Below are positions 1 through 26,994 of a stretch of DNA of 30,664 nucleotides, piece by piece. Every line of letters starts with the position of its first letter. Position 1 is the stretch's first letter. The position numbers were made by a program, and so were the translations under genes. Under the pieces are notes generated by a model that did not search any database, was not told the origin of the DNA, and saw nothing but the letters and a program-made list of their open reading frames with translations. This stretch comes from an uncultured Spirochaetota bacterium (GTDB lineage Bacteria; Spirochaetota; Spirochaetia; SZUA-6; Fen-1364): contig CAVUXE010000068.1 in assembly GCA_963745235.1 (NCBI GenBank), positions 1 through 30,664 on the forward strand. Direction: 5' to 3'.

Positions 1-294
1 TCAACTCCCGCAGTGCCCTCAGGTCCACGGTCTCGTCCCTGGCCTCCAATCGGACCTCCAACTTCAGATAGGGTGCGTCTCACGAGCTTCTTATTGCCGC
101 TTTTCAGTTTTGTCTGAAGCGAGGCGACGATTGCTTGGCGATCGGCGCATTCGTTGCGACAGACGATGAAAGCGCTTACTATTAAGTGCCTCAACCATCA
201 GATCTCAGATCCCGATGGCTGGGTGGACGGCCGTATGCCTGGATAAAGCATGATTTCGCAGGAGTTGAATGTTGGTGAACCAGGATCGTGACCA

Positions 295-1496
295 ATGAAC
301 ATCGCCGTGCTGGGGATAAACAACAAAACAGCCGCTATCGAGTTGAGGGAAAAGCTTTCATTCAATTCGGAGCGGCTCGGAGAGGCGATGAGACAGCTGA
401 AAGAAAAGGCTGGGGTGCTCGAATGCCTGATCCTTTCTACATGCAATAGGGTGGAAATATACTCGCTACTCGTAGATGCTGACCCTTCAGTACTCGCTTC
501 GTTTCTCCGAGAATACCACGGGATTGAGGAATCGCTCGATGACAAAGTATATGTGCACATGAATCAGAGCGCGCTCAGACATTTGTGTAGGGTCGCCTCG
601 GGAATAGATTCCATGATCGTAGGAGAATCGCAGATTTTCGCCCAAGTCAAGCAAGCGTATAGAATAGCCCTCGAATGCGGAGCTGCCGGTATTGTTTTGA
701 AGAGTCTCTTTACGCAGTCCTTCTCGCTTGTCAAGACAGTGAGATCAAAGACTAACATCGGCTATGCAAATGCGTCCGTGAGCAGTGCAGCGGTAGATTT
801 TACAAAGAAAATAATCGGCGACATTTCTGGTAAAGCGGTACTCATCGTTGGGCCGGTGAAATGGGCGAACTGACTCTCAGGAACCTTGTGGAGAAGGATG
901 TGGGCTGTGTGCGTGTGTCGAACCGGACGTTCGAGGGGGCCGTCCGCCTGGCAGCAGGTTTCAAAGGAATACCGATCATGTTCCACGAAATCGAGGAGTA
1001 TATCCCCAAGACCGACATCATCATCAGCTGTATTGACGCCCCATCATATCTGATAAGCAGGAACAATATAGCCGAAAGACCTCCAAGTAAGCCCCTTATT
1101 ATAATTGACATTTCCGTACCACGTTCGATCGATCCGAACGTCAAGGAAGCAAGGGACGTCCATCTTTTCAACATCGACGATTTGCAAGATGTGGTCCAAG
1201 AAAGTCTAGCCATGCGGAAGAGGGAAGCAGAGAAAGCAACTCAGATTATCGACAGTAAGGTGAATAGCATTTTGAAGAAACTCGATTCAACCGATCTTGC
1301 CCCGCTGATTCTCTCTTTGAAGGAGATAGCTGAAAGAATCCGTATGGAGAGCTTCTCCTCGTTCGTGGGCAAAACTGGAGTCTCCGGGAGTGACAAGGAC
1401 CTCATTGAGTCGCTGACAAAGTCTATTGTGAACAAATTTGTCCACAGTACGATCGTGAAGGTCCGCGAATACTCGAACAGCCTTCGGTACAGATGA
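295..1496 (+). CDS. hemA: Glutamyl-tRNA reductase, one apparent frameshift at ~850-852
   Basis: LSTCNRVEIY catalytic motif and HLCRVASGIDSMIVGESQI. Adding one G to the run at 850-852 restores IVGAGEMGEL and joins ORFs 295..873 and 861..1496. DISVPRSID motif present. Confidence 0.93.
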
Positions 1497-1511
1497 AGCA
1501 GGTGGTGGGGC

Positions 1512-3116
1512 ATGCGCAAGTACCTGAAGTTCCTTTTCGGACTGCGGGAATTCCTAAAAAAACGCATTTCGCAGGAGGAGGCCCTCGAGGCGGCGCGACG
1601 ACTTTTCGCGGCACGGATTCTAAATCGTAGCGGGAACTTCCTTTGGTTGATGGAGAAAGGCGTATTCAGCTACCCCAAAAGCCCTTACCGTCCCCTTCTA
1701 GACAAGAAGAAGATCAGCTTCTCTGATCTAGCGAAATGGGTCGGCAGAGAAGGCATCGAAGGTGCACTCGAGACTCTCAGGGAAGAAGGTGTGTATTATT
1801 CCGTCGACGAGTATAAAGGCAAAACGGAAGTGTCGCGGGATGGCTTGAAGTTCCGTCTCAATGAGAAGATGTTCAACAATCCTTTCCTCTCGCCGGCTTA
1901 TGAGGTGCGAAGCGGCGCGACGAGAAGTGCGGGGACGAGGATTCGGATCGATTTTAGTTACCTTTCACAACGGTCGCTCTATGATGCGTTCCTTCTAAAT
2001 ATGCACGGATGTCTGTCGGCGCCGATTGCTAACTGGTTTCCCATTTACCCCGGTGCACCGGGAATTAATTCGTCTCTTCGATTTGCGCGGATTGGCAACG
2101 CCCCGAAGAAGTGGTTCTCCCAGGTAGAGAAGAGCCACGTCAGGGTGAACTGGGAGAAACGCCTGGGCGTCAGCTACATTTTTTTCATGAGCAGGCTCAT
2201 GGGCGTTCCACTTGCGAAACCGGAATACGCAGGTCTGAATAATGCCTACGACGTTGCGCTGTGGGCATCGAGGATCCTACAGGAGAGCGCGCGATGCGTG
2301 ATCTACACATTCGCTAGCTCGGCCGTCCGTGTCTGCATGGCAGCGGTGGAGAACAACCTGGACATAAAGGGGACGCGGTTTCTGGTAACGGGAGAGCCCT
2401 TGACTGAGCAAAAGAAAGCCGAGATCGAGGCCACAGGCGCCTGTGCCGTCCCGGTCTATGGGATATCGGAAGCGGGAGTCATCGCCGCAGGGTGCCGACC
2501 GGACATACAACGAAAGCGACCACTGCCATAGCCTCAAGGATACAACTGCGATCATTACCCACCGCGTGCGGGTGGAACACAGCGATGTCGAAGTGGACTC
2601 TTTCCTATTCTCCTCCATGCTGTACGAATCGCCCAAGATCCTCCTGAACGTCGGTATGGGAGATTACGGCAGGGTGCGGCAAGCGGAATGTGACTGCCAG
2701 TTCGGACAACTCGGATTCGACACCCACGTAAGCGATATTCGCAGCTATGAAAAGCTTACCGGAGAGGGGGTGACTTTCGTAGACATGGACTTCGTTCGGA
2801 TTCTGGAGAAGGAGTTACCCATGCTTTCGGGGGACAGAGTACCGACTATCAGGTGGTTGAAGAGGAAGATGAGCGAGGCCTCACGCGGCTGCAATTGATC
2901 GTGAGCCCGCGCATCGGGGAGATCGACGAGGAGAAGATAGTTTTGACCTTTATACGGTTTCTCAAGAGCGGGAGGTCGAGTCCGGAATCATGGGCCCAAT
3001 CGGGGTCCGAAATGTGGGAACAGGCCCGCACGCTTCGCGTGCATCGCAAGTATCCTGTCCCGACGCCCAGTGGGAAAATCCTCCCATTTCACATCATGGA
3101 AAGGAGCCAAAAGTGA
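1512..3116 (+). CDS. Uncharacterised phenylacetate-CoA ligase/CapK-like (ANL superfamily) adenylate-forming protein, ~535 aa, two apparent frameshifts (~2496, ~2825)
   Basis: ORFs 1512..2531, 2443..2898 and 2853..3116 join with single-base corrections. Motifs: SGATRSAGT (P-loop-like), VTGEPLT, YGISEAG (YGxTE-like), GMGDYG (TGD-like), C-terminal TPSGKI. Confidence 0.65.
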
Positions 3117-4085
3117 GTTACCCAGTCACAAGGTTAAGACGGCTGAGAAGTAATGCTCTCTTCCGCGATATGGCACGCGAAACGGCGATAGGGGTAGGAG
3201 ACCTGATCTGTCCGCTCTTCGTCGTTCATGGTGAAGGGGTGAAGGAAGAAATTGAACCCCTGCCGGGAAACTTCCATCTCTCTGTCGATCGCCTGTCGGA
3301 CGAGGTGAAGGAGATCCGGGATCTTGGGATCCCTGCCGTTCTCCTCTTCGGAATCCCGGCGCGGCGTGACGAGCTCGCCTCCGAAGCCTACAGTCCGAAC
3401 GGAATCGTCCAGACAGCGGTTCAGAAGATCAAGGAGGATGTCCCGGGGATAGTTGTCGTGACTGACGTCTGCCTGTGCGAATATACCCCGCACGGGCACT
3501 GCGGGATCCTCGAAAACGGCTTCCTTCACAATGACAGGAGCCTCGAACTGATCCAGAAAGTCGCTCTTTCTCACACTGAAGCAGGATCGGACATTGTTGC
3601 TCCAGCAGCGATGCTTGACGGCCAGGTCAGGGCAATCCGCACAGTGCTTGACCAACATGGCCATACTGAAACGGTCATCATGGGGTACTCCGCAAAATAT
3701 GCGTCGAAGCTCTACGACCCGTTCTTCAAGAGCGGAACGGAGTCCGCGCTCCAGTTTGGGGGACAAAAAGTCTCACCAGATGGATTTCGGCAACTCGGAT
3801 GAGGCAATGCGGGAGATCGCCCTCGATATCGAAGAGGGAGCGGACATTGTCATGGTCAAACCGGGGATGTTCTATCTCGACATCGTTTACCGAGCGAAAA
3901 AGCAATTCGGCATGCCACTTGCTGTATACAACGTGAGCGGAGAGTGCTCTATGATCAAGGCCGGGGCCGCTGCGGGCTACCTCGACGAGAAGTCGATACG
4001 GTACGAGCTTCTCACAAGTTTCAAAAGGGCGGGGGCGGATTTGATCATCACGTATTTTGCGAAAGAAGCAGCACGGCAGTTGTAG
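3113..4085 (+). CDS. hemB: Porphobilinogen synthase (ALA dehydratase)-like protein with divergent active-site lid, one apparent frameshift at G-run 3758-3762
   Basis: GTG at 3113 after AAGGAG, overlapping the upstream TGA. RLRRLR N-terminus, Zn motif DVCLCEYTPHGHCG, Schiff-base lysines in YSAKY and VMVKPG, plus VSGE and ITYFA. Confidence 0.88.
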
Positions 4086-4099
4086 ACTCGCCAGAACGC

Positions 4100-4125
4100 T
4101 AAGGATTCGACACAAAATAAACGCT
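4100..4125 (+). repeat. Left inverted repeat of IS (outer TA may be target site)
   Basis: TAAGGATTCGACACAAAATAAACGCT. Confidence 0.88.
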
Positions 4126-4144
4126 ACACATAGCATTAGGAGTC

Positions 4145-5365
4145 GTGTATACTCTGGGAGTGACACCCGAAGCGAGTATTCGATTCCGATTTCAGCGATT
4201 GGCCTCGACGCTTGACGAACGCGCCCTGCGCCTATTCGCGGCAACGGAAGCGGAAGCGCTTGGGCACGGGGGTATTTCCCAGGTGTCACGCATCACCGGT
4301 TTGGCTCGCTCGACCATTCTTCGCGGACAACAAGAACTCCGCCAACGACCGGCAGTGACCCCGGGCAGAATCCGCCGCCCCGGGGGAGGACGGAAGAAGG
4401 TGAGCGCAGTAGATCCGACGGTGGTGCAGGAGCTGGAGCGCCTTGTTGAACCGTTGTCCCGAGGAGATCCGATGTCGCCGCTGCGCTGGACGTGCAAGAG
4501 CATTCGCACGTTGGCGGACACCCTGCAGGGCATGGGTCACGGGGCCAGCCATCGGTGGGTTTGGGCCACCCTGCACGAGCTGAACTATAGTCTCCAAGGC
4601 AACCGCAAGATGGAGGAGGGCAACCAGCACGCCGACCGTAACGCACAGTTCGAGCATATCAACGGTCGGGTGTCACGGGAGATGCGGCTCGGGAATCCGG
4701 TGGTATCGGTGGACACCAAGAAGAAGGAACTTGTGGGAAACTACAAGAATGACGGGCGCAAATGGCACGCAAAGGGGGAAGCCCCGCGAGTCCAAGGCCA
4801 CGATTTCCCCCATCCCGATGTGCCGCGGGCCTATCCCTACGGCATATACGACTTGGCGCGCAACCGGGGTCACGTTGTGGTCGGTACCGACCATGATACC
4901 GGACAATTCGCCGTCGCCTCGATTCGGGGCTGGTGGCGTGCGGAAGGTCGCCGTTTGTATCCACGGGCCCAGCGGCTTTTGATCACCGCCGATGGCGGCG
5001 GCAGCAACGGGTACCGCGCTCGGCTGTGGAAGCTGGAACTTCAGCGCTTGGCTGATGAGCTTCGCTTTGCGATCTGCGTTTGCCATTTCCCGCCCGGTAC
5101 AAGCAAGTGGAACAAGGTGGAACATCGGCTGTTCTCTTTCATCAGCACCAACTGGCGTGGGGAGCCCCTAAGGGACTATGAAACCATCGTGCGCTTGATT
5201 GCGAACACGACCACCGCGACGGGCTTGCAGGTGACTTGCAGACTGGATCGCCGCAAATACTCAGTGGGGCGAAAGATCTCCGACGAGGAAATGAGCCGCG
5301 TCAAGATCAAGAAGGAAAATTTCCATGGCGAATGGAACTATACCATTCTTCCCACGTCTCCATAA
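4145..5365 (+). CDS. ISAzo13-family (Rhodopirellula-type) DDE transposase
   Basis: Uninterrupted 406 aa ORF with LDERALRL, RGDPMSPLRWTCKS, SVDTKKKE, LITADGGGSNG, PPGTSKWNKVEHRLFS and FHGEWNY. Confidence 0.93.
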   Translation: MYTLGVTPEASIRFRFQRLASTLDERALRLFAATEAEALGHGGISQVSRITGLARSTILRGQQELRQRPAVTPGRIRRPGGGRKKVSAVDPTVVQELERLVEPLSRGDPMSPLRWTCKSIRTLADTLQGMGHGASHRWVWATLHELNYSLQGNRKMEEGNQHADRNAQFEHINGRVSREMRLGNPVVSVDTKKKELVGNYKNDGRKWHAKGEAPRVQGHDFPHPDVPRAYPYGIYDLARNRGHVVVGTDHDTGQFAVASIRGWWRAEGRRLYPRAQRLLITADGGGSNGYRARLWKLELQRLADELRFAICVCHFPPGTSKWNKVEHRLFSFISTNWRGEPLRDYETIVRLIANTTTATGLQVTCRLDRRKYSVGRKISDEEMSRVKIKKENFHGEWNYTILPTSP

Positions 5366-5370
5366 TTTGA

Positions 5371-5396
5371 AGCGTTTATTTTGTGTCGGACCCTTA
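5371..5396 (-). repeat. Right inverted repeat of IS
   Basis: AGCGTTTATTTTGTGTCGGACCCTTA; its reverse complement matches the left IR at 24/26. Confidence 0.88.
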
Positions 5397-5739
5397 CCTG
5401 GCCGCCGGACATGTAGCGCAGCTTTGCAGCCTGCTGGATGATCTGGTCAGCCGCGCAGAAAAGGAAGTCCCCGTACTGGAAATCGATGATGGGCCGCATT
5501 CCCTGCATTGCCGCCCCGATGCCGAGGCCGACAAAACCAGCCTCGGAGATCGGCGTGTTGATGATGCGCTCGGGACCGAACTCCTGGAAAAGCCCGAGTG
5601 TGAAGAGGAACGAGCCGCCAATGCGGATGTCCTCCCCCATGATGAACACCTCGGGGTCCCGCTTCATTTCCTCCCGCAGCGCCTCCCGCAACGCCTGCAC
5701 CACGGTGAGAACCCTGGTCTCCGTCTTTGCCGTGCTCAT
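5397..5739 (-). pseudogene. TPP-dependent dehydrogenase E1 beta subunit (PdhB/AcoB-like), 3' two-thirds missing at the IS boundary
   Basis: ALREEMKRDPEVFIMGEDI, FGPERIINTPISE, QAAKLRYMSGGQ. Homology stops exactly at the right IR. Confidence 0.88.
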
Positions 5740-6738
5740 GCGTACACCCCGTCCAGTACGCCCTGCGGGTTGGATGGAGGGCTGGCTTGCGCGAACTCGA
5801 CTGCCTCCGTGATGGCAGCTTTGATCTCCTCCTCGATGCGGGTGACCGCCTCCATACCGATGCGGGAATCCCCGACAAGGAGTGGCCTCAGTTGTTCAAT
5901 GGGGTCCGCGGCGAGCCATGCCTTCACTTCCTCCTGGGGCCGGTAGGTGGCGGGGTCGTCCCTCTTGTGGCCGCCCCTGCGGTACGTCACGCACTCCAGC
6001 AGCGTGGGGCCTTGCCCTTCCCGGGCGTTGTGCACCGCGGAGGAAGCCGCGTCATGAACGGCAAGAACGTCGTTGCCGTCCACTGTGACACCCGGAATTC
6101 CGTACGCGGCAGCCCGCTCCGAGATGTGCTCGTTCAGGATAACGTCCGTGATGTGCGTCGAGACGCCGTAGAGATTGTTTTCACATACAAAGACAACGGG
6201 AAGCTTCCAGATTGCGGCGAGGTTGACTGCTTCGTGCCAGTCTCCCTTGTTGACCGTTCCGTCCCCGAAGAAGTTGCACACCACCCGGGCTTCACCGTGC
6301 CTCTTGAACGCGAACGCCATGCCGTCCGCAATGGGAGACGATGCGCCCGACAATGGCGATGGCCGGCAGCGCGCCTACGGAAAAGTCTCCGACGTGGAGT
6401 GAGCCTCCGCGGCCCCTGCAACACCCGGTCTCCTTTCCGAACAGCTCCGCCATGAGGCTGCGCGGGGAGACTCCTTTTGCGAGGGCCTGGCCGTGGCCGC
6501 GGTGGGTCAACGTGATGAAATCCGATGCGTTGATTGCCGAACACACGCCGACAGGAACCGCCTCCTGACCATGGGAGAGGTGGATGGTGCCCGGCATCAG
6601 GCCTTTCAGGAACAGCTGGTTCACGGCCAGCTCGAATGAGCGGATAAGAAGCATGCCGCGAAAAGCGCGTTCCAGAAGGGCCGGCTCGTAGGCGCTTACC
6701 GTTGTCCGGCCGAATGGCCAGGGTTGGACGATTCTCAT
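5736..6738 (-). CDS. TPP-dependent dehydrogenase E1 alpha subunit (PdhA/AcoA-like), apparent frameshift ~6347
   Basis: GTIHLSHGQEA, THRGHG, GRGGSLH and TPP motif GDG...ENN. ATG at 6738 preceded by GAAAGGA. Confidence 0.88.
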
Positions 6739-8263
6739 GGTGGTTCCTTTCCCGGGGAGGGATCCTCCTGAGACATTTCGTAGAGGGCATGATAGGAAGG
6801 CGCGAGGGAGACCGCGCATTCCCGAAAGACGGTGAAATAGCGATCATAGACCGCGGCATCCCGAGGATCAGGAGAAATGGTCGGGCTGGCCTGCGTTCCC
6901 AGCATTGCCGCAGCGCGCCAGTCCGGAGAACGCCGGCGCCCAGGCCTGCGAGCTTGGCCGCTCCAACAGCGGCATCATCCAGGGGAGGCTTTCTGAGCGT
7001 TGCGCATAGCACGCTGGCAACGATGGAAGCCCAGAATGGGCTCCTGCTGCCGCCACCCAGGAGGAACAGGGACTTCGGCTCCAGGCCCATTCCTTTCACC
7101 GTCTCCATGCAGTCCCGCAGCGTGAAGGCGACCCCCTCCAGGACTGCCCGTGCAAGGTCCGCCGGCCCGTGACGGACGCTGAGGCCGATGAAGGCCCCGC
7201 GGAGCCGGGGATCCCAGTACGGAGTCCTTTCCCCCATCAGGTAGGGATGGAAGATCAACCCGTTCGCCCCGGCGGGAGCCGAAGCGGCAAGGGACACCAC
7301 CCGATCGAAGCTCATTTCTCCGCCGCCGAGCAGTTTCGACCTGAGCCACCGCAGCGCTGCCGTGCCGTTTGATGTCACGGCGACGGTAAACCCCAGTTTG
7401 TCGAGGAGATACGGGTACGTCAGGGTGCGCGCGGATGGCGTAAGACCGCGCGTCACGACGTTGAAGCACCCCGAGGTTCCGATCTTGACAATGCAGTCTC
7501 CTGGATCTACTGCACCGACGCCGAACGCCTCAACGGCCGAATCCCCGCCCCCTACCGCAACGAAGACATCGGGCGGGAGGTCAAGGCGCTTCGCAATCTC
7601 CGGCCGCAGCCTGCCCGCGTCCCCGTGCGACGGCAGTATGCCCGGGAGCAGCCCGGAGTCCAGTCCGATAAGGGAGCACAGCTCCCCCGACCACCTAGCG
7701 CCGGCGAAGCTCAGCCAGTTGAGTGCCAGTTGCATCATACGGGTCCGTGACGTATTCCCCGGTGAAGCGGTATCGCACATAATCCTTTGTCACGAGGATT
7801 TTCCGAAGCCGGCTCCACGCATCCGGCTCATTGGCGCGCAGCCACGCGAGCTGGCTCAGGGTCCAGGAAGGATTGACCGGTTGCCCGGAGATGCTGAAAA
7901 TCCGTTCACCCGCCTCCTCCTGGAGCCGCCGGGACTGCGGGATGCTTCGAAGGTCGGACCAGTGCATGCACGGTCGAAGGCTCGAGTCTTTTCCGTCAAG
8001 GAGCGCGACGTTGTGGGCCGGACCGACAAACGCGATCCCCGCGACATCCCCGGCGGAAAAGTCACCCGCCTTCAGGCAAAATTGAATTGCGGTGCACGCC
8101 CCCTCGAACCAGTCCTCGGGGTCCTGTTCAGCCCATCCTGGTTTCGGATAAAGGGTCTCGTACTCCGCCTTCCCCTGCGCAAGGACCTTTCCGTCCGGAG
8201 CAATGGCCGCGGCCTTTGCGCCGCTGGAACCTACGTCCACGCCGACAAGGACCGGGCGCTCAT
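6735..8263 (-). CDS. FGGY-family carbohydrate kinase (xylulokinase-like), several apparent frameshifts (~8255, ~7710, ~6900)
   Basis: DVGSSGAK, PGWAEQDPEDW, WSDLRS, GGGDSA, PYLMGERTP, LEGVAF, GGGSRS. Both ends are ATGA overlaps. Confidence 0.87.
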
Positions 8264-10181: not shown

Positions 10182-11030
10182 CCCGGGTGACCTTGCAGCT
10201 CCCGAATGGCTTTTTCCGCGTCTTCAGGCTTCAGGATGCTCGCGTGGCGGTAGTTGCTGTTGTTCTCAACGAAGGACACGCCCCTGCCCTTGATTGTCCG
10301 CGCTATCGCTACGGAGGGCCTGCCCATGGTCGAGCCTGGCGGCATCGAAGTAGCCGGCCAGGTCAGTGAAGTCATGGCCGTCGATCTCCTGCACGTTCCA
10401 GCCGAAGCTGCGCCACTTGTCGCCAAGGGGTTCGAGGCCCATCACCGCGTCGGTTGTTCCGTCCACCTGCGCGTTGTTGCGGTCAATGAGCACGCACAGG
10501 TTGTCCACCCGGAAATGCGCCGCGGCCAGGGCGGCTTCCCAGACCTGGCCCTCGTCCTGCTCGCCGTCGCTCATGAGAACGTACACCCTGGACTGCCGGC
10601 CCTTCATGCGCGCGCCCATGGCGCGTCCGACAGCCTGGGAGAGGCCGATTCCAAGGGATCCAGTGGTCGCATCGATGCCCGTAGTCCGGCCGAAGGGGTG
10701 GCCTTGCAGGGGAGAGCCGATCCTTCGAAGGTTCATCATGGTGGTCTCGTCTATTACCCCGGCCTCGAACAACGCGCCGTAGAGCACCGGGGACGCGTGC
10801 CCCTTGGACAGGATGAACCTGTCACGGTCCGCGGCGGCCATGTCGGACGGGTCGTAGCGAAGCTCGCGAAAGAACAGCGCTGCCACGATGTCGGCAGCGG
10901 AAAAAGCCGAGGTGACATGGCCGCTTCCGGCCGCGGTTGTCATGCGGACAATGGAGATCCGAATGTTGCGGGCGCGCAACGCCAACTGCGACGGCTCTGT
11001 TTCATTCCAGGGATTGCGCATGGCAGTCAT
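10178..11030 (-). CDS. Transketolase, N-terminal (TPP-binding) subunit, apparent frameshift ~10320
   Basis: GSGH, DRFILSKGHASP, LQGHP, TGSLGIGLS, SDGEQDEGQVWEA...DRNN. Confidence 0.9.
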
Positions 11031-11986
11031 GAAACCGCCGCCCTTCTGCCGGGCGGAAGCTTGCGCTTTATGCAGCGCAGGACAGCGTTGACAACGTCCT
11101 TCGCGGCCAGTCCGTACTTTGCGCGAAGCTCCTCCGCCTCCCCGCTTTCGGCGAACGTGTCCGCCACGGCAACCTGCTCCAGGGGCGCGGGAGCGCGCAG
11201 GCAAAGGACTTCCGCCACCGCGGACCCGAGGCCCCCGTGCCTGTTGTGATCTTCCACGGCAACGACAGCTCCGGTCTGCACCGATGCAGACACGATTGCC
11301 TCTGCATCGACGGGCTTGATGGATACCATGCTGATCACGCGACACTGAAGCCCGGATTTCTCCAGCATCCCGGCGGCCTCCAGGGAGACGGCAACCATCC
11401 CACCCTCCGCGATGATCGTTGCATCCGTTCCCTCTCTTAAGAGAAGGCTCTCACCGATTCTGAAGCTCGCGCCACTTTCCGTCAGGGCAGGCATGGCGCT
11501 TCTTTCCAGACGGACATACACGGGGCCGTCATGCCTGAGGGCGGCGCGGACCACCGGCAGTACCTGGTTGGCATCCGTGGGAGCAAGGACCGTCATGCCG
11601 GGCACCGCCCGCATGAGGGCGATGTCTTCGATGCATTGGTGGGTCACGCCATCCGGACCGACGTTGATTCCGGCATGGGAGGCGACGATGGTCACGTGCA
11701 GGCGCGGATAGGCAATGCTGTTGCGCATTGGCTCCCAGGCCTTGCCGCCCACGAACATCGCAAAGCCGGCAACGAGCGGGCGCCAGCCCTCCAGGCACAA
11801 CCCCGCGGCAAGGGCCAGGGTGTTCATCTCCGAGACCCCTGTGCAGAGAAACCTGTCCGGGAAGGCGTCCCTGAACTTCGCTGCACCCGTGGAGCGCGAC
11901 GTGTCAGGGGAGAGAACAATCAAGTCCGGGAACTCCTGGCCGAGGATGGGGAAAGCATCACCAAGAGCTGTTCTTTGATCGAGCAC
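11027..11986 (-). CDS. Transketolase, C-terminal subunit
   Basis: GVSEMN, HAGINVGPDGVTHQCIED, GPVYVRL, EDHNRHGGLGSAVAE. GTG at 11986 with GGGAGG RBS is preferred over the longer ORF that overlaps gntR. Confidence 0.9.
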   Translation of the reverse strand: MLDQRTALGDAFPILGQEFPDLIVLSPDTSRSTGAAKFRDAFPDRFLCTGVSEMNTLALAAGLCLEGWRPLVAGFAMFVGGKAWEPMRNSIAYPRLHVTIVASHAGINVGPDGVTHQCIEDIALMRAVPGMTVLAPTDANQVLPVVRAALRHDGPVYVRLERSAMPALTESGASFRIGESLLLREGTDATIIAEGGMVAVSLEAAGMLEKSGLQCRVISMVSIKPVDAEAIVSASVQTGAVVAVEDHNRHGGLGSAVAEVLCLRAPAPLEQVAVADTFAESGEAEELRAKYGLAAKDVVNAVLRCIKRKLPPGRRAAVS

Positions 11987-12005
11987 CTTCTCGACCTCCC
12001 TTCGA

Positions 12006-12767
12006 TCAACCGAAGCCTGCCATGGTGAGAACGGTCGAGCTGTTCCTGGAGTTGCGCACGTCGAGACGGAAGAGATCTCCGCGATAGGTGCCTCTCGTGT
12101 ATCTGCAGGGGAGGTTTCGTTCGTCGTAGACAACGCCTTCCAGCTCCATCATGGGACTGCCCGGCGCAACGTTCAACAGGTCGGCGTCAGCCACCGAGGC
12201 CGGGACCGCGCGAAGAGAATCCTGGGAATACGCCATGGTGGTTTCACCGATCCTTTCCGCCGCCTCGAGAATTGACTCCAGGGTCAAGTCGATCTCCAGC
12301 ATGCTTGCGTAGATGCGGGCGGAGAAGTAGGACGCGTGGATTGCCGCCGGAATCCCGTCAACAACGCGCAGCCGCCTGACGATCACGACTTCCGCGTCCG
12401 TTTCCAGGCGCAGCTTTTCAGCCACTACTACGGTGGCTGGAATGATGCCCTGGTCCAGGATCCGCGTTTCCACGGAAAACCCTTTTGTCTGGAGGCTCCT
12501 GCTGAAGCTCATCATCGTGGAGAAACCATACGGAAGATCATGGTCGGAGACGAACGTTCCCTTGCCCGGGCTGCGGAAAAGCATGTTCTTGGCAACGAGC
12601 TGTTCTATCGCCTGGCGCGCGGTGACGCGGCTCACCTCGTATTTGGCCGCGATCTCGTTCTCAGACATGACTTTTTCACCAGACTTCCATTCGCCGGACA
12701 CGATTTTCTGTTCCAAGAGTGTCTGGATCTGAAGATACAAAGGCTTGGCGGAGCTCTTGTTCACCAT
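12006..12767 (-). CDS. GntR-family (HutC subfamily, UTRA domain) transcriptional regulator
   Basis: PLYLQI, SENEIAAKYEVSRVTARQAI, GKGTFV and a UTRA-like C-terminus ending YRGD. Confidence 0.93.
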   Translation of the reverse strand: MVNKSSAKPLYLQIQTLLEQKIVSGEWKSGEKVMSENEIAAKYEVSRVTARQAIEQLVAKNMLFRSPGKGTFVSDHDLPYGFSTMMSFSRSLQTKGFSVETRILDQGIIPATVVVAEKLRLETDAEVVIVRRLRVVDGIPAAIHASYFSARIYASMLEIDLTLESILEAAERIGETTMAYSQDSLRAVPASVADADLLNVAPGSPMMELEGVVYDERNLPCRYTRGTYRGDLFRLDVRNSRNSSTVLTMAGFG

Positions 12768-12826: not shown

Positions 12827-12855
12827 TTGACAATACATTGGGGCAGGCTTACACT
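12827..12855 (+). promoter_or_regulatory. Sigma70-type promoter for the ABC operon (TTGACA-17-TACACT)
   Basis: Perfect -35, 17 bp spacer, 4/6 -10, 37 bp upstream of ATG 12893. Confidence 0.65.
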
Positions 12856-12892
12856 CTCACGCTGTGATCGGGCCCGCAGTGAAGGTGAAAGG

Positions 12893-14446
12893 ATGAGACA
12901 AGAGCCGGGAAGCCTGCCACGGCTCCGCATCAGGAAGATCAGCAAGAGTTACGTGGGGATCCGCGCGCTTCGGGAAATCGATTTCGATATTGCCGCCGGA
13001 GAGATCCACGCCCTTGTTGGTGAGAACGGCGCGGGCAAATCCACTCTTGTCAAGGTGATCACGGGGGTCGAGCCAGCGGACTCCGGCCAACTCCTGCTGG
13101 ACGGCGTGGAATGCAGGTTCCATGATCCCATGGAGGCGCGGGCAAACGGCGTCCTGGCAGTCTACCAGGATCCCAAGCTCTTCCCCAACCTGGACATAGC
13201 AGAAAACGTCTTCATGGGCGTCCACCCTCGGACCCGAGCCGGGTTCATCGACAGGAAGCTGATGTACCGCAGGACCAGAGAAGTCCTCGAGCGCCTCGGT
13301 GCTGACCTGGATCCAAAGACAATGGTCGTCTCGCTATCCATCGGACAGATGCTCTTCGTGGAGTTCGCCCGCGCCATGTTCGAAGCCCAGGAGAAGCTGC
13401 TTCTCCTGGACGAACCCACCGCCTCGCTTTCTCCGAACGAGGCGAACCAGCTCTTCGACATCGTCAGGAAGTTGAAAGACGGGGGAGCTTCCATCCTGTT
13501 CATCTCTCACCGGATAGAAGAGCTTTCCGGTTTTGCGGACCGGATCACCATCCTGCGCGACGGGTCTCACGTGGTGACGCAGGACATGGCGGACATGACG
13601 CAGGAGAAGATTGTCCAGCACATGGTTGGCAGGTCGCTGAACGACCTCTTCGCGGAAAAGAATACTGCTGCGGGGAACCAAGAGAGCGCAGGTGACGTCT
13701 CCGAGCCGGTGCTTCGCGTGGAAGGCCTCAATGCGGAAGGTGAGTTCTCCGACATTTCCTTTTTCATCAGGCCCGGAGAGATCCTCGGAATGGCGGGTCT
13801 CGTTGGCTCGGGGAGGACGGAGATTGCAAAGGCGATATTCGGCGCTCTTCCCATTTCCAGCGGAAAAGTATGGATCAGGGGCAGACACGTAAAGGTCAGG
13901 GACCCGTCCCAGATGATCGATGAAGGGATCGTCTATGTCCCCGAAGACCGGGAAGTGGAGGGGTTGATCGCTGACCTCTCCGTGGTGGACAACATGCTGC
14001 TGCCGGCAGTCTTGAAGTACGCGCGGGCCGGCTTCGTGGATACAAAAAAGGAAGCTGAGATTTTCACGCGGTATTCCGAGCGCTTCCAGATCAAGACACC
14101 CGGCCCGCAGGTGAAGATCTCTTCCCTCTCCGGCGGCAACAGGCAGAAGGTTGTTCTTTCCAAGTGGATGGCCATGAGCCCGAAGGTCTTCATCTTCGAT
14201 GAGCCCACCCACGGGATAGACGTCGGCTCCAAGGCGCAGGTGCATGCCGTGATCCGGGAGCTGGCACGCCAGGGGCTGGGCATCCTCCTGATCTCCTCAG
14301 ACCTCCCGGAGATCCTGGAGATGAGCGACCGGGTGCTCGTGATCTCTGACGGGACGCTCGCCGCGGACTTTCCCCGCACCGAGGCCACGCAGGAGAAGAT
14401 CATGGCCGCCGCGGTGAGCGGCGGGAAGGCGCGGGTCCAGGCATGA
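12893..14446 (+). CDS. CUT2 monosaccharide ABC transporter ATP-binding protein (two ABC domains)
   Basis: GENGAGKST, LLLDEPT, ISH, LSGGNRQK, DEPTHGIDVG. Confidence 0.95.
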   Translation: MRQEPGSLPRLRIRKISKSYVGIRALREIDFDIAAGEIHALVGENGAGKSTLVKVITGVEPADSGQLLLDGVECRFHDPMEARANGVLAVYQDPKLFPNLDIAENVFMGVHPRTRAGFIDRKLMYRRTREVLERLGADLDPKTMVVSLSIGQMLFVEFARAMFEAQEKLLLLDEPTASLSPNEANQLFDIVRKLKDGGASILFISHRIEELSGFADRITILRDGSHVVTQDMADMTQEKIVQHMVGRSLNDLFAEKNTAAGNQESAGDVSEPVLRVEGLNAEGEFSDISFFIRPGEILGMAGLVGSGRTEIAKAIFGALPISSGKVWIRGRHVKVRDPSQMIDEGIVYVPEDREVEGLIADLSVVDNMLLPAVLKYARAGFVDTKKEAEIFTRYSERFQIKTPGPQVKISSLSGGNRQKVVLSKWMAMSPKVFIFDEPTHGIDVGSKAQVHAVIRELARQGLGILLISSDLPEILEMSDRVLVISDGTLAADFPRTEATQEKIMAAAVSGGKARVQA

Positions 14447-15495
14447 ACGGCACTGTCCTCGGGGAGACAAGCATGGAAACGGCCGTTGCCCCGATGAACC
14501 GGCAGTGGAGCGTGGTCATCCTCAAGAACAGGGTCCTCGGGGTCCTGCTCTTCGAAGTGTTGATCGTCATCGTGTTCTCCGTTGTGGCGGGAAAGTTCTT
14601 CACGCTTTCCAACCTGAACACGATCTTCCTCAACGCCTGCATCATGGCCATCCTCGCCTCCGCGGAGGGCGTGGTCATCATCACGCGCAACTACGACGTT
14701 TCGATTGCCTCCATGCTCGCGCTTTCCGCCTACGTCGGCTTCGACATCATCAAAAGGTTCCCCGAGGTCGGACCGCTCCTGGTCGCAGTGCCCGTCGGCA
14801 TCGGGCTCGTCTGCGGCCTGCTGAACGGTCTCATGGTTGCCTATGGCAGGGTTTCCTCGATTTTCGTGACCCTCGGCGGCCTTTCCATCTACCGGGGGAT
14901 CGCGACGGTTTATGCACATGGACAGCAGATAGAGCCGAAGGACATTCCGACGTGGGTCAGCCAGAGTGTCACGGGGAATCTCCTCCCGGGTATTTCCAAC
15001 CTGGCGCTCATCGCCATAGCCGTCGTTGCCCTCGTATCGGTCTACCTGCGGTACACGCGGATCGGGCGGCAGATCTACGCTATCGGTTCCAACCCCGGCG
15101 CCGCGACATTCTACGGGCTGAAAGTGCCGCGGGTAATCCTCGGCGCCTACGTGTTGTGCGGCGCCCTCACCGGCTTGTCCGGATTCCTCTTTGCCGCGCG
15201 CTCCTCGTACGTGGTGCCATGGTTCGCGCAGGGGCTGGAGATCAGCGTCATAGGCGCGGTCGTGGTGGGCGGCGTGAGCGTGCTCGGGGGGTCGGGAAAC
15301 GTCGTGGGGGCTTCCTTTGGCGCCCTCGTGCTCGCAACGCTGGACAACGGCCTGATCCTCGTGAAAGCGGATGAGGTCATCCGCGAGCTCATCTACGGTT
15401 TTGCGATCGTGGGCGCCTGCATCCTGGACGCAACGGTGCTGCGGCAGGTGGGAATCCTTCTGAAATCAAAGCGGCGCAGAGGACTGAAGGGATGA
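14443..15495 (+). CDS. Sugar ABC transporter permease
   Basis: Hydrophobic ORF with TRNYDVS, TRIGRQIYAIGSN, VVGGVSVLGGSG. Confidence 0.93.
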   Translation: MNGTVLGETSMETAVAPMNRQWSVVILKNRVLGVLLFEVLIVIVFSVVAGKFFTLSNLNTIFLNACIMAILASAEGVVIITRNYDVSIASMLALSAYVGFDIIKRFPEVGPLLVAVPVGIGLVCGLLNGLMVAYGRVSSIFVTLGGLSIYRGIATVYAHGQQIEPKDIPTWVSQSVTGNLLPGISNLALIAIAVVALVSVYLRYTRIGRQIYAIGSNPGAATFYGLKVPRVILGAYVLCGALTGLSGFLFAARSSYVVPWFAQGLEISVIGAVVVGGVSVLGGSGNVVGASFGALVLATLDNGLILVKADEVIRELIYGFAIVGACILDATVLRQVGILLKSKRRRGLKG

Positions 15496-16520
15496 CAAGG
15501 AGCTACCGCTTCCAGGCTTTTCTGCGCACGTACAACTGGGAATGCACGTTGTTCGGGTTTCTTGTCGTTGCCGTCGTGACCGCAAGCCTCCTTTCCCCCC
15601 TGTACCTGAACGCGTACCAGATCCTCTATTCCCTGCAGCAGTCCATGGCCATCACGGGCACAATGGCAATCGGCTTCATGCTGATCATCCTTGTCGGAGA
15701 GATCGACATCTCCCTGCCGGCCCTCGCGGCCGTTGCAACGGTTAGCTTTGCCCGGCTTTCCCAGCTGGGGATGCCCTTCTGGGCCGCGCTCATCATCGTG
15801 CTTTCCTGTACGATCCTGGCAGGCCTGTTCAACGGCCTCCTCGTTGTGAGTTTTTCCCTTCCCTCCATGGCGGTGACCCTCGGAATGATGGGAGTCTATC
15901 GCGCCATTGCCCTGTGGATCGGCGGCCACGAGGGGTTCGGGGCGGATGCGTTCCACAAGCCGTATATCTGGATCGGGTCCCAGTCCCTGTTTGGCAGCCT
16001 CCCGGTCTCCATTCTGCTCCTCGCTGTCCTCTTTGCAGCCGCGTTCCTGCTCGTCCACAAGTCCGTCTATGGACGGCTTCTCTACGCCACGGGCAACAAC
16101 CGCAAGGCCACCTACCTTTCCGGACATGACGTCAACCTCATCATCGTCAGCACGTATGGCATTGCCGGCTTCATGGCCGGAGTCGCGGCCCTGATTTTCA
16201 TCGGCCAGTACGAATCCGCAAGATCGGACAACCTCAACGAGGTGCTGCTGTTCGTCGTTGCCTGCATCGCCCTGGGAGGATTCAGCCTGTCAGGCGGAAA
16301 AGGCAACGTGCTGGGGCTGGTCTTTTCCATTCTCCTCCTTGGCACTATCCAGAACGGAATGGGCCTGGCGAACGTGAACGGCCCCGTCCAGACGCTCGTG
16401 ATCGGACTGATCCTGACCGTCTCAATCATCCTGCCGGTCGTGATCGGAAAAATCTCTGTGCTTCGATCGTACCTAGGGGATCTTGCGGGCAGGAAGCCCG
16501 CACGTCACAACCAAATCTGA
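15492..16520 (+). CDS. Sugar ABC transporter permease
   Basis: Hydrophobic ORF with GEIDIS, GRLLYATGNN, LGGFSLSGGKG. Confidence 0.93.
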   Translation: MTRSYRFQAFLRTYNWECTLFGFLVVAVVTASLLSPLYLNAYQILYSLQQSMAITGTMAIGFMLIILVGEIDISLPALAAVATVSFARLSQLGMPFWAALIIVLSCTILAGLFNGLLVVSFSLPSMAVTLGMMGVYRAIALWIGGHEGFGADAFHKPYIWIGSQSLFGSLPVSILLLAVLFAAAFLLVHKSVYGRLLYATGNNRKATYLSGHDVNLIIVSTYGIAGFMAGVAALIFIGQYESARSDNLNEVLLFVVACIALGGFSLSGGKGNVLGLVFSILLLGTIQNGMGLANVNGPVQTLVIGLILTVSIILPVVIGKISVLRSYLGDLAGRKPARHNQI

Positions 16521-25995: not shown

Positions 25996-26994
25996 TCAGA
26001 CGCGCTTTCGCTGAGCGCTGTAGGCGGCAACCGCCCCAAGGATGATGAGACCCCGGACAATCCACTGGATAAACGTGTTGACTCCGATGAGATTGAAGAT
26101 GTTGTTCAGCAGGGACACGATCAGAAAACCGGCAACGCTGCCCACAACGCTGCCGACTCCTCCGGTCAGCGCCGTCCCTCCGACCAAAACGGCAGCAATA
26201 GAGTTGAGATCATAGAGACTATAGTCCAGCCCGCCCACCTGGGGATCTCCCACCCCCATGCGGCTGATGAGGAATAGAGCAGACAGGGCAGCCATGAAAC
26301 TGGAGAACAGGTACGTGAAAAGGACCACCCTCCTGGTTTGGATCCCCGAAAGCCGTGCCGAACGCTCGCTACCCCCGGTTGCAAACACATGGCGGCCTAT
26401 CACCGTCTTTGCCAAAATGAATTGAGCAACGACAATGGCGATGAGCAGGAAAATGACGGCAAACGGAACCGGCCCGATCGTTCCGTTTGCAAAATAGCTC
26501 CACCATGGGGAGATGCGGCCCTTCGGCCGCTTGGTGTACATGAGCACGACGCCCTGGACGATCGAGCCCACGGCCATGGTGGCAATGAAAGGGGCAATCC
26601 TAAGCCGGTTCACAAGGAGGGAGTTGGTCAGCCCGACGGCCAACGCCATACACACAACGAGCAGAATGACGGGAATTGCCACGCCGAGCGCCGGGCTCCC
26701 CGCCATCAGCCCTGAGGCGTATACTGCCACCATGCTGATTGTCGCCCCGACGGAAAGATCTATTCCGCCACCGAGGATGACGAATGTCTGCCCAATTGCC
26801 ACGAGGCCCAGGGCGACCGACTGGAGAAGAACGTTGAAAAGGTTGCGCGATCTGAGAAAATCCGGAGCGAAAAGCGCGCCAATGACGGCGATAACCGCGA
26901 GGAACAGATAGATCGTGACCGTCTCGCTGTGTTGACGAATGAAACGGATCGTCGACACCGAACCGTGCGTCTCGGGAACCCCCGCACTATTCAT
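25996..26994 (-). CDS. Sugar ABC transporter permease (RbsC-like)
   Basis: GGIDLSVG, PFIAT, GRHVFATGG, IAAVLVGGT. Confidence 0.94.
   Translation of the reverse strand: MNSAGVPETHGSVSTIRFIRQHSETVTIYLFLAVIAVIGALFAPDFLRSRNLFNVLLQSVALGLVAIGQTFVILGGGIDLSVGATISMVAVYASGLMAGSPALGVAIPVILLVVCMALAVGLTNSLLVNRLRIAPFIATMAVGSIVQGVVLMYTKRPKGRISPWWSYFANGTIGPVPFAVIFLLIAIVVAQFILAKTVIGRHVFATGGSERSARLSGIQTRRVVLFTYLFSSFMAALSALFLISRMGVGDPQVGGLDYSLYDLNSIAAVLVGGTALTGGVGSVVGSVAGFLIVSLLNNIFNLIGVNTFIQWIVRGLIILGAVAAYSAQRKRV

Follow-up and report, generated by a model that had tools for sequence, protein, structure and literature searches.

A remodelled porphobilinogen-synthase-family protein in a conserved, putatively biosynthetic gene cassette

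Zinc-dependent porphobilinogen synthases (PBGS; PF00490) are represented by solved structures that include 1w1z, 5lzl, 1b4k from P. aeruginosa and 1i8j from E. coli. Two lid arginines of the E. coli enzyme, R205 and R216, bind the carboxylate of the A-side 5-aminolevulinate (ALA), and in P. aeruginosa R215, K229, Q233 and the serine of the APS motif have roles in the PBGS active site. PMC7725820 defines the A-side and the P-side of PBGS. The stretch of DNA analysed here (the window; 30,664 nucleotides from an uncultured Spirochaetota bacterium) encodes a variant PBGS-family protein, HemB*, which shares with the solved enzymes the Schiff-base lysines, the three zinc cysteines, the P-side serine and tyrosine, and Gln222, but differs from them in Ala165, an inserted Phe204, Lys206 in place of an arginine, Asp202, a basic residue at position 199 and His221. 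The genes linked with the variant also differ: they encode a ligase and a UbiD-like protein and are not hemC and hemD.

The C5N-unit pathway, known from manumycin and moenomycin, combines an ALA synthase, an ALA-CoA ligase and an amide synthetase. The cassette around HemB* resembles it in coupling a ligase to a dedicated ALA supply and, on our reading, in leading to a non-tetrapyrrole product; in contrast to it, the ALA would come from a glutamyl-tRNA reductase (with HemL in some loci) instead of a PLP-dependent ALA synthase, a HemB-family enzyme is present and the ligase is PaaK-like. PEP-CTERM/exosortase loci offer a second comparison, in that genes similar to theirs (TIGR03019 FemAB-like, TIGR03098 ligase, EpsH) occur in loci of the variant, all scoring below the family cut-offs. 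To our knowledge, PEP-CTERM/exosortase systems have no HemB, hemA or UbiD component.

Reading frame and active site of HemB*

HemB* starts at a GTG that overlaps the stop codon of the upstream gene, X (GTGA), with AAGGAG at 3101-3106; the overlap suggests co-translation of the two genes. An ATG at 2990 was discarded as the start, because the MSYP/MSFP beginnings of relatives match the GTG at 3113. The gene looks broken because of one extra G within a run of five, and GDKKSHQM (about 3759-3782) is readable only after a +1 shift from this run. One base at 3758 is absent, with no other letter different, from contigs of two public soil runs (X1 and X3). Public soil-metagenome contigs also carry indels at the remaining frame breaks: a G added at 849 mends the break near 849-852 in hemA*, the first gene of the cassette on the contig, and indels at 2495 and 2817 bring X back into frame, so that all four breaks (hemA*, X twice, HemB*) are repaired in independent public contigs. 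The TGC codon of Cys278 is likewise backed by one public contig that covers 3530-3972 with no other letter different. In-frame stops are absent, and intact relatives are 74-85% similar. We therefore read the HemB* frameshift as an assembly error and HemB* as intact (coordinates in Table 1).

Table 1. Features of the HemB* locus, in positions of the window
Feature	Position	Strand	Basis
hemA*, one of two glutamyl-tRNA reductases in the genome, first cassette gene on the contig	295..1496	+	Pfam GlutR_N, Shikimate_DH and GlutR_dimer on two frames
X, PaaK / coenzyme-F390-synthetase-like adenylate-forming enzyme (predicted), about 535 aa, two assembly frameshifts	1512..3116	+	Profile, fold
HemB*, variant porphobilinogen-synthase-family protein, 323 aa	3113..4085	+	PF00490 on both frames
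CLCEYTPHGHC, Zn-site C120, C122, C130	3470..3502	+	Cys at all three in 198/198 clade members
APAAMLDG, Ala165 in place of the canonical Ser	3599..3622	+	Residue counts
Remodelled lid Lys195-Asp224: K199, D202, inserted F204, K206, G208, T209, K218, H221, Q222	3695..3785	+	Clade-defining columns, counts
Run of five G, one surplus (assembly error)	3758..3762	+	Sole break in HemB*
Lys249, second Schiff-base lysine (VMVKPG)	3858..3860	+	Sequence, alignment
VSGEC, Ser275 kept, Cys278 for Tyr	3933..3947	+	Residue counts; public contig
ISAzo13-family insertion sequence	4100..5396	+	PF07592, NF033519, inverted repeats

Read through the frameshift, HemB* scores 441.1 bits against NCBIfam NF006762 (cut-off 297), and its two frames score 262.8 and 164 bits against PF00490 (cut-off 24.6). 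It matches 1w1z over the full length (E 6.8e-105), and its identity with the genome's own canonical HemB is 50%; relatives of HemB* are named porphobilinogen synthase by JGI. A sequence-only reading of the window had picked out four motif strings between 3599 and 3780; all four are present in the DNA, and one, VSGEC, lies beyond that range.

Residues were counted in 198 members of the HemB* clade (see below) and in 107 canonical sequences. Lys195 and Lys249 are the Schiff-base lysines known from the PBGS literature; Lys195 is found in 198/198 clade members and aligns with P. aeruginosa residue 205. The P-side carboxylate ligands Ser275 of VSGE (198/198) and Tyr314 of TYF (197/198) are about as constant. 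The residues that the same reading had listed as retained, namely Lys195/Lys249, Cys120/122/130, Ser275 and Tyr314, are indeed all there. Position 278 is Y in 184, C in 12 and F in two clade members, so VSGEC is a minority state.

The serine of the APS motif is replaced by Ala165 throughout the clade (A in 192/198 members vs S in 103/107 canonical sequences). The lid segment KYASKLYDPFFKSGTES, which begins at 3695, contains an extra, in-frame Phe204 that is missing from 107/107 canonical sequences in a MAFFT alignment; with this residue inserted, Lys206 falls in the first lid Arg column, occupied by R in 100/107 canonical sequences. Position 206 is K in 186, R in six, Q in five and S in one clade member (K/R in 192/198). 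Lys218 is present in 198/198 members and also in 29/107 canonical sequences; equivalents occur in solved PBGS (GDKSTYQMN in 1w1z, GNKATYQMD in P. aeruginosa chains). Gln222 is retained in 197/198, and an added basic residue, K or R, stands at position 199 in 191/198. His221 is shared with the genome's own canonical HemB (GDRKSHQMD). Clade-wide changes of the lid and site comprise Gly202Asp, the Phe204 insertion, Arg to Lys206, Ala208Gly, Thr209 and Tyr221His. The earlier claim that the residues binding the A-side carboxylate had been lost is not supported as it was put: Lys206 and Lys218 are basic, Gln222 is kept and position 199 adds a further basic residue. We suggest that the A-side has been remodelled and not lost, and that Lys206 may contact the substrate.

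The variant clade and the genomes that carry it

All of the best 120 database relatives of HemB* (64-85% identity) carry APA.., LYDPFFK and GDKK/R, far more than chance would give. The variant rows fall on a single branch (43 rows, SH-like 99), also with the signature columns removed (27 rows, SH-aLRT 97), and the canonical copies from these genomes are dispersed over the remaining HemBs (seven changes). The variant motif thus marks a monophyletic group (SH-aLRT 97-99). A representative library clustered at 50% provided canonical background only, with no full-length clade member among the best 150; the signature occurs in one of these 150 whole-family representatives, a 181-aa fragment. By record titles, the clade extends over at least eight phyla, and carriers of the cassette include Acidobacteriota, Spirochaetota, Fibrobacterota, Verrucomicrobiota, Nitrospirota and others; the variant loci were fetched by patterns taken from the variant itself and are a biased sample. 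The variant is rare among 201 genomes of the phylum of genome G003: 63% identity is reached only in G003 and 59% in G131 and G138, with the rest at or below 57%, in a scan that counts the unpublished G033, G058 and G155 with one match each at 48-51% identity. HemB* represents a separate, widely spread and apparently undescribed branch of the porphobilinogen-synthase family. No HemB paralogue with ties to ligases, UbiD enzymes or exopolysaccharide loci turned up in titles and abstracts of the literature.

A second HemB is encoded in 51 of the 59 variant-holding genomes checked. Canonical motifs are present in the seven second copies inspected and in that of the window genome, and the second copy in 44 genomes was called canonical solely by its identity (40-56%). 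The records closest to the window genome's canonical HemB (68%) come from Anaerolineae/Chloroflexota, a faint pointer to the host at most. The hemC, hemD and hemE genes adjoin the canonical copy, not the variant; in the window genome a second hemA also lies beside the canonical hem genes, on contig C33. HemC is present in 8/8 two-copy genomes tested vs 2/8 variant-only genomes (Fisher's exact ~0.0035). All absences come from metagenome-assembled genomes, which may be incomplete; six of the eight variant-only genomes gave no match to HemC, and two of these six gave none to HemD. In the two with HemC (G221 and G245), HemB* could feed tetrapyrroles, or a canonical copy could have remained unassembled. 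Chitinispirillaceae loci show the order hemA-hemL-X-HemB*, with no HemC match in those genomes. Hydrogenobacter, considered as a sole-variant host, was dropped, as its HemB (L081, L082, L084) has canonical motifs. The sequence-only reading would have been refuted if the motif were common in sole housekeeping HemBs; this is not the case, as at most two of the 59 genomes could be of that kind. The variant also does not go with hemC and hemD in the way expected of a member of the tetrapyrrole pathway. That HemB* is no ordinary housekeeping HemB is upheld: it forms its own clade, and its host genomes either encode a canonical HemB as well or mostly lack a HemC match.

A cassette with an adenylating enzyme and a UbiD-like partner

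Of a biosynthetic cassette that is both conserved and mobile, the window appears to contain the left portion: hemA*, X and HemB*, bounded by the contig end on one side and an insertion sequence on the other. Its G+C content is 49-56% vs 60-65% in the rest of the contig. The insertion sequence begins 15 nt past the HemB* stop, ending the cassette; it encodes a transposase at 4145-5365 (PF07592; NF033519, 565 bits) between 32-nt inverted repeats (4100-4131 and 5365-5396), and the genome has two further complete copies and a partial one, 99-100% identical to it. In hemA*, a stretch STCNR can be read, presumably the catalytic-Cys motif.

X is a single-copy gene in the window genome. Neither its intact homologue (at E up to 0.01) nor the window pieces matched a Pfam or NCBIfam family. 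A profile of 26 X homologues, in contrast, weakly matches ClxA (E 6.4e-5), called 'phenylacetate-CoA ligase' in its entry, and the X cluster in Atlas is named 'Coenzyme F390 synthetase'. In a Foldseek search with an AF2 model of X (pLDDT 75.5, pTM 0.80), PaaK1 (2y27) ranked first at E 7.9e-12, followed by BT_0428 (4r1m), NatL2 (6tm4), ClxA (9s3l/9s45) and AjiA1 (6wuq), all with probability 1.00 and E values of 8e-12 to 3e-9. The model predicts a two-domain ANL-type fold like that of PaaK; unlike the PaaK-family enzymes, to which it is 12-16% identical, X is about 100 residues longer and escapes Pfam/NCBIfam recognition.

Across the variant loci, annotated by cluster representatives only, X lies directly upstream of HemB* in 60 of 73 (59 of the 72 with enough flank, plus L013) and 3 kb off in one further locus. 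Its place is taken by an ANL AMP-binding ligase in eight loci and by an A-T-TE protein with a PPTase in four Nitrospirota loci. The functional tie between HemB* and the adjacent ligase that the sequence-only reading had suspected is borne out by this kept neighbourhood. No carrier protein gene adjoins X in the PaaK-type loci, and no ALA synthase was found among the annotated neighbour clusters; hemA is present in 31, HemL in five and UbiX in three of the 78 variant loci. At least one sugar/EPS-type gene occurs in 39/78, among them FemAB-like genes (12 loci), exosortase EpsH (six loci) and GT4 glycosyltransferases; an ANL ligase similar to TIGR03098 is found in these loci too.

A short UbiD-like decarboxylase gene accompanies the variant in 61/78 loci; in the window's genome (85.7% complete) a search with one protein query found none. 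The nearest solved relatives of the encoded protein are 7pda, HmfF (6h6v) and PA0254 (4ip2), with E values of 7e-42 to 4e-37 for HmfF and PA0254 (4ip2/7abn), and it scores 225 against TIGR00148, under the cut-off of 245. It is about 350-385 aa long and its match ends near residue 330 of these 450-520-residue enzymes, so that it lacks the C-terminal domain. Of these prFMN decarboxylases of heteroaromatic acids, PA0254 has pyrrole-2-carboxylate as its substrate and HmfF furan-dicarboxylate.

What the cassette may produce

We consider it likely that HemB* belongs to a dedicated pathway that makes a pyrrole from ALA and stands apart from tetrapyrrole synthesis. ALA would be made by the cassette itself, by hemA* and in some loci hemL, and HemB* would condense it by the normal double-Schiff-base, zinc-dependent chemistry to porphobilinogen or a close analogue. 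Instead of being handed to HemC, the pyrrole acid would be activated by the neighbouring adenylating enzyme (the PaaK-like X, an ANL ligase or the A-T-TE enzyme), and the short UbiD-type (prFMN) decarboxylase would work on it. As half of the loci hold glycosyltransferase, FemAB-like or exosortase genes, the product would probably be joined to a secreted glycoconjugate. The remodelled lid and the Ser165Ala exchange might serve to adjust the choice of substrate or its hand-over. It is from the neighbourhood only that we infer the product, what X acts on and the UbiD-like role; the missing UbiD-like gene in the window, and the sugar/EPS link in only 39/78 loci, count against this dedicated pathway. 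HemB*, having passed NF006762 and kept every catalytic residue, may carry out plain porphobilinogen synthesis. The A-side substrate is slightly more likely than not still ALA, another keto acid being the lesser but considerable prospect.

An altered A-side substrate, with P-side ALA joined to another carbonyl compound (the different ketone of the sequence-only reading), is an alternative, though an unlikely one. Among 2-oxo acids, 2-oxoglutarate is a candidate, being an ALA isostere with a carboxylate replacing the aminomethyl group; its use would yield a pyrrole-2-carboxylate, to be decarboxylated by the UbiD-like enzyme or activated by the ligase. The clade-wide changes (Ser165Ala, position 199, Gly202Asp, Phe204, Lys206, Ala208Gly, Thr209, Tyr221His) cluster at the substrate site, the partner decarboxylase has PA0254 and HmfF among its closest solved relatives, the folds nearest to X include the aryl-acid adenylating NatL2, ClxA and AjiA1, and the Nitrospirota partner is an A-T-TE enzyme. 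Yet the residues of the canonical reaction, including the basic pair and Gln222, are all kept, and the dedicated hemA/hemL genes mean that ALA is needed, on a side that they do not indicate. The choice of 2-oxoglutarate is chemical reasoning, and the roles of Ser165 and the lid residues are general background. There is a limited chance, about as small, that HemB* is the first PBGS-family enzyme to give a non-porphobilinogen pyrrole, within a cassette building a pyrrole-decorated exopolysaccharide or glycolipid, some of whose carriers would be without any tetrapyrrole pathway.

More doubtful still is the thioester/amide form of the sequence-only proposal, in which the ligase first turns ALA into a CoA or carrier thioester or into an amide, and HemB* takes this carboxyl-blocked ALA on its A-side. 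C5N-unit pathways do contain ALA-CoA ligases, the neighbour found most regularly is an adenylating enzyme (60 + 8 + 4 of 73 loci) and the stop of X overlaps the start of HemB*; against this, the charge of the pocket (positions 199, 206, 218 and 222, counted above) is conserved and would suit a free carboxylate, and the PaaK-type loci offer no adjoining carrier gene.

It is improbable, rather more so than the blocked substrate, that HemB* is an ordinary second PBGS isozyme for tetrapyrroles, adapted to regulation, metal supply or oxygen level and with coincidental neighbours. The score against the NCBIfam equivalog model (441 vs 297 bits), the JGI names, the complete catalytic residues and HemC in two variant-only genomes are what such an isozyme would show. 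However, six variant-holding genomes gave no HemC match, two of them no HemD match either, X and the UbiD-like gene accompany the clade across phyla, and hemC, hemD and hemE stand with the canonical copy. A decaying pseudogene or assembly artefact, suggested by four frameshifts in 3.8 kb (hemA*, X twice, HemB*) between a contig end and an insertion sequence, is scarcely credible, given that each break is mended by an indel in otherwise identical independent contigs and that in-frame stops are absent and intact relatives 74-85% similar.

Annotation pipelines label these genes porphobilinogen synthase, so that genomes with the variant as sole HemB are credited with a haem/B12 step that they probably do not use in this way. 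If the dedicated-pathway reading is true, ALA and a PBGS-type enzyme would supply a further metabolic branch besides that of the tetrapyrroles, spread by gene transfer over many soil, peat and sediment phyla and tied to genes for cell-surface polymers. The clade is also a natural experiment on the PBGS lid and on substrate choice, and a cultured carrier that apparently exists (relative P0077, named Chitinispirillales bacterium ANBcel5 by NCBI) makes the question approachable at the bench.

Active-site lid of the variant HemB

The motif strings quoted in the sequence-only reading are all present in the variant HemB of the window, VSGEC falling outside the range given for them, and the catalytic core has been kept, with Lys195, Lys249, Cys120/122/130, Ser275 and Tyr314 all in place (numbering of the 323-residue read-through). 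The loss of A-side residues proposed in that reading holds only under an ungapped alignment; once a gap is allowed, Lys206 occupies the Arg column. BLAST, HMMER and MAFFT alike require one additional lid residue. In the MAFFT alignment used for residue counts, which comprised 198 variant and 107 canonical sequences, the inserted residue is Phe204, missing from 107/107 canonical sequences, and Lys206 aligns with the canonical Arg (R in 100 of 107); across the clade, position 206 is K in 186 sequences, R in 6, Q in 5 and S in 1. The second arginine considered lost corresponds to Lys218, which is also Lys in 29 of the 107 canonical sequences and in solved enzymes (GDKSTYQMN in 1w1z, GNKATYQMD in P. 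aeruginosa chains); Lys218 and Gln222 align with P. aeruginosa residues 229 and 233.

The clade is defined by the replacement of Ser with Ala165, of Gly with Asp202 and of Arg with Lys206, by a basic residue at position 199, by the inserted Phe204, and by Gly208, Thr209 and His221, the last shared with the window genome's own canonical HemB (GDRKSHQMD); elsewhere in the protein, clade-defining positions are few (53, 55, 137, 253, 271 and 289). Cys278 is a minority state, found in 12 of the 198 clade members. One variant subclade (P0075, P0078, P0083, P0098 and locus L098) keeps APS and has FFQ rather than FFK, with VSGEC as in the window. As the window protein combines APA with FFK, either Cys278 has more than one origin or recombination has taken place.

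The variant lid marks a single clade independent of hemC and hemD

Whether the variant lid forms a clade in a family alignment, a question raised in the sequence-only reading, was answered by two trees, each placing it on a single branch. A FastTree analysis (151 rows) separated all 43 variant rows from the rest at one branch (SH-like 99), and in an IQ-TREE analysis (LG+C20, 80 rows) from which the signature columns had been removed, the 27 variant rows again shared one branch (SH-aLRT 97), with the canonical copies of variant-holding genomes dispersed among other HemBs. The best 120/120 database relatives (64-85% identity) bear the variant signature. Nearly all of the best 150 family representatives (50% clustering) have APS and YGPFR, and the variant lid occurs in one 181-aa fragment only. 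The closest row outside the clade in the representative library, its sister P0131, is intermediate in its lid (YAP-FK lacking the additional Phe, APS retained, KHATHQID in place of GDK..HQMD) and may mark another divergent HemB group. Judged by genome-record titles, the clade spans Acidobacteriota, Spirochaetota, Fibrobacterota (Chitinispirillaceae and a Fibrobacter MAG), Verrucomicrobiota, Nitrospirota, Sumerlaeota, Aminicenantes and others.

A second HemB was found in 51 of the 59 variant-holding genomes examined (G000-G004, G006-G010, G211-G259). APS, YGPFR and GDR are present in all seven second copies inspected and in that of the window genome; the other 44 were classed as canonical by identity alone (40-56%). 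In the window genome, the canonical hem genes are clustered on contig C33 (hemA, a hemC-hemD fusion, hemB and hemE), the fusion being one ORF (Porphobil_deam plus HEM4, L001:14-1474) directly upstream of the canonical hemB. This canonical HemB points weakly to Chloroflexota. Two further observations concern canonical copies: one (G226:C32:73961-74893) contains an in-frame TGA, and many in Acidobacteriaceae align as two separate segments (query residues 2-135 and 138-322), suggesting that the canonical enzyme of that lineage carries an insertion some tens of residues long.

HemC was found in 8/8 two-copy genomes tested, adjoining the canonical copy wherever its position was examined. Among the eight variant-only genomes, searches gave no HemC match in six (G001, G007, G211, G213, G214, G219), nor a HemD match in G001 and G007, while HemC was found in G221 and G245 (absence in six of eight versus none of eight; Fisher's exact ~0.0035, by hand). 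Chitinispirillaceae genomes with the order hemA-hemL-X-variant HemB gave no HemC match. Each single absence is weak, because these are metagenome bins of uncertain completeness; the evidence that the variant HemB stands apart from the tetrapyrrole genes is the pattern across genomes. The variant HemB is not the housekeeping enzyme.

The variant HemB is linked to an adenylating enzyme

The window spans the whole of contig C68. At its left end, hemA, the PaaK/F390-synthetase-like enzyme X and the variant hemB run in the same direction, each spread across more than one reading frame in this assembly.

Features of the contig discussed in the text
Feature	Position	Strand	Details
hemA, glutamyl-tRNA reductase	295-1496		
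X	1512-3116		535 aa
Variant hemB	3113-4085		start GTG 3113
ISAzo13-family insertion sequence, intact	4100-5396		transposase 4145-5365; 32-nt inverted repeats, 88% complementary
E1-beta/transketolase pyrimidine-binding gene, 5' part	5338-5739	(-)	profile positions 4-103 of 174
FGGY sugar kinase, E1-alpha, split transketolase	6134-8240, 5736-6819, 10266-12133	(-)	frame-split
Sugar ABC transporter (ATPase, two BPD_transp_2 permeases), aldo/keto reductase, ROK-family protein, Fe-alcohol dehydrogenase, Gfo/Idh/MocA oxidoreductase	12827-16520, 26987-28489 and neighbours		

The GTG start of the variant hemB overlaps the TGA of X (GTGA) and has AAGGAG 7 bases upstream. Its frame breaks at a run of five G (3758-3762); reading GGAC as one step gave the stop-free 323-residue protein. 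Public soil-metagenome contigs lack one base at 3758 and one at 2495 (two runs each), and carry an additional G behind 849 and an additional C behind 2817; no other letter differs across the stretches covered. These indels are exactly the four frame breaks, so the three genes are undamaged in nature, the breaks having been introduced by errors in this assembly. The frame-correcting contigs also confirm the TGC codon of Cys278. Further frame-split genes in the window fit a generally indel-prone assembly, the public-contig check having covered only the four breaks in 300-4100.

The cassette is incomplete in the window, with only 294 bases of contig before hemA and an insertion sequence beginning 15 bases after the variant hemB. 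The E1-beta/transketolase-type gene beyond is shortened, extends into the element's right end and appears to have been cut by its insertion or by rearrangement at it. The genome holds further copies of the element at 99-100% identity (full on C57 and C48, partial on C27) and five older relatives (65%). G+C is 49-56% in the cassette (1-4100) versus 60-65% over the remaining contig (5400-30664), which suggests recent horizontal acquisition or unlike DNA joined at the insertion-sequence repeat. A mis-join of the assembly at this repeat is possible; our reading is that the cassette was acquired horizontally and truncated through insertion-sequence activity. The genes that follow, for sugar uptake and sugar catabolism, make up a carbohydrate-use island with no relation to the cassette. 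One query for a UbiD-like gene elsewhere in the genome found none.

Patterns derived from the variant protein itself retrieved 80 genome loci; two Hydrogenobacter loci proved on inspection to hold canonical HemB, leaving 78. An adenylating enzyme adjoins the variant HemB almost always. X is the immediate upstream neighbour in 60 of the 73 loci whose flanks were long enough (59 of 72, plus L013, whose lid reads LFDIFFK) and stands 3 kb off in one, and an ANL-type AMP-binding ligase takes its place in eight. In the four Nitrospirota loci (L014, L032, L034, L063), the place of X and of the UbiD-like gene is taken by an adenylation-thiolation-thioesterase protein of 890-940 aa and a 4'-phosphopantetheinyl transferase, which follow the variant HemB. 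X matched no Pfam or NCBIfam family; its profile (26 homologues, mean column identity 73%) touches ClxA, its AlphaFold model matches PaaK1, BT_0428, NatL2, ClxA and AjiA1, and its Atlas cluster is named "Coenzyme F390 synthetase".

Annotation covered BLAST-cluster representatives only, so neighbour counts are lower bounds: among the 78 loci, a short UbiD-like gene (about 350-385 aa; closest relatives 7pda, HmfF and PA0254) occurs in at least 61, hemA in at least 31, HemL in at least five (NF000818, 527 bits) and UbiX in at least three. At least 39 hold one or more sugar/exopolysaccharide-type genes (GT4 or GT2 glycosyltransferase, UDP-GlcNAc 2-epimerase, FemAB-like, exosortase EpsH, GINT1_N-like, NAD epimerase/dehydratase). 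The Chitinispirillaceae order is hemA-hemL-X-variant HemB-GT4-FAD oxidase-UbiD-like, continuing at one locus into UbiX and an acyltransferase.

Proposed pathway

Sequence models identify the protein as a porphobilinogen synthase, from whose canonical form it differs in the defining active-site serine, lid architecture, phylogeny and pathway context. We could not find the cassette described in the literature searched, and an earlier description elsewhere is possible.

ALA would be made by the cassette itself via the C5 route, and the variant HemB would form a pyrrole acid through the usual chemistry, because every catalytic residue is invariant, as is the Zn site. The kept basic pair, Gln222 and K/R at 199 speak for an A-side ligand that still bears a free carboxylate, and oppose the thioester or amide suggested previously. 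A different keto acid could still take the place of A-side ALA, given Ser165Ala, Asp202 and the longer lid. On chemical reasoning only, 2-oxoglutarate, an ALA isostere, is a candidate that would give a pyrrole-2-carboxylate, a product that would agree with the closest relatives of the UbiD-like enzyme and with aryl-acid-type ligases.

The adenylating enzyme would then activate a carboxylate of the pyrrole acid; that three unrelated types occupy the same position argues that what is needed throughout is activation of a carboxylic acid. The UbiD-like enzyme would take off or put on a carboxyl group, and the end product would probably be attached to a surface polymer.
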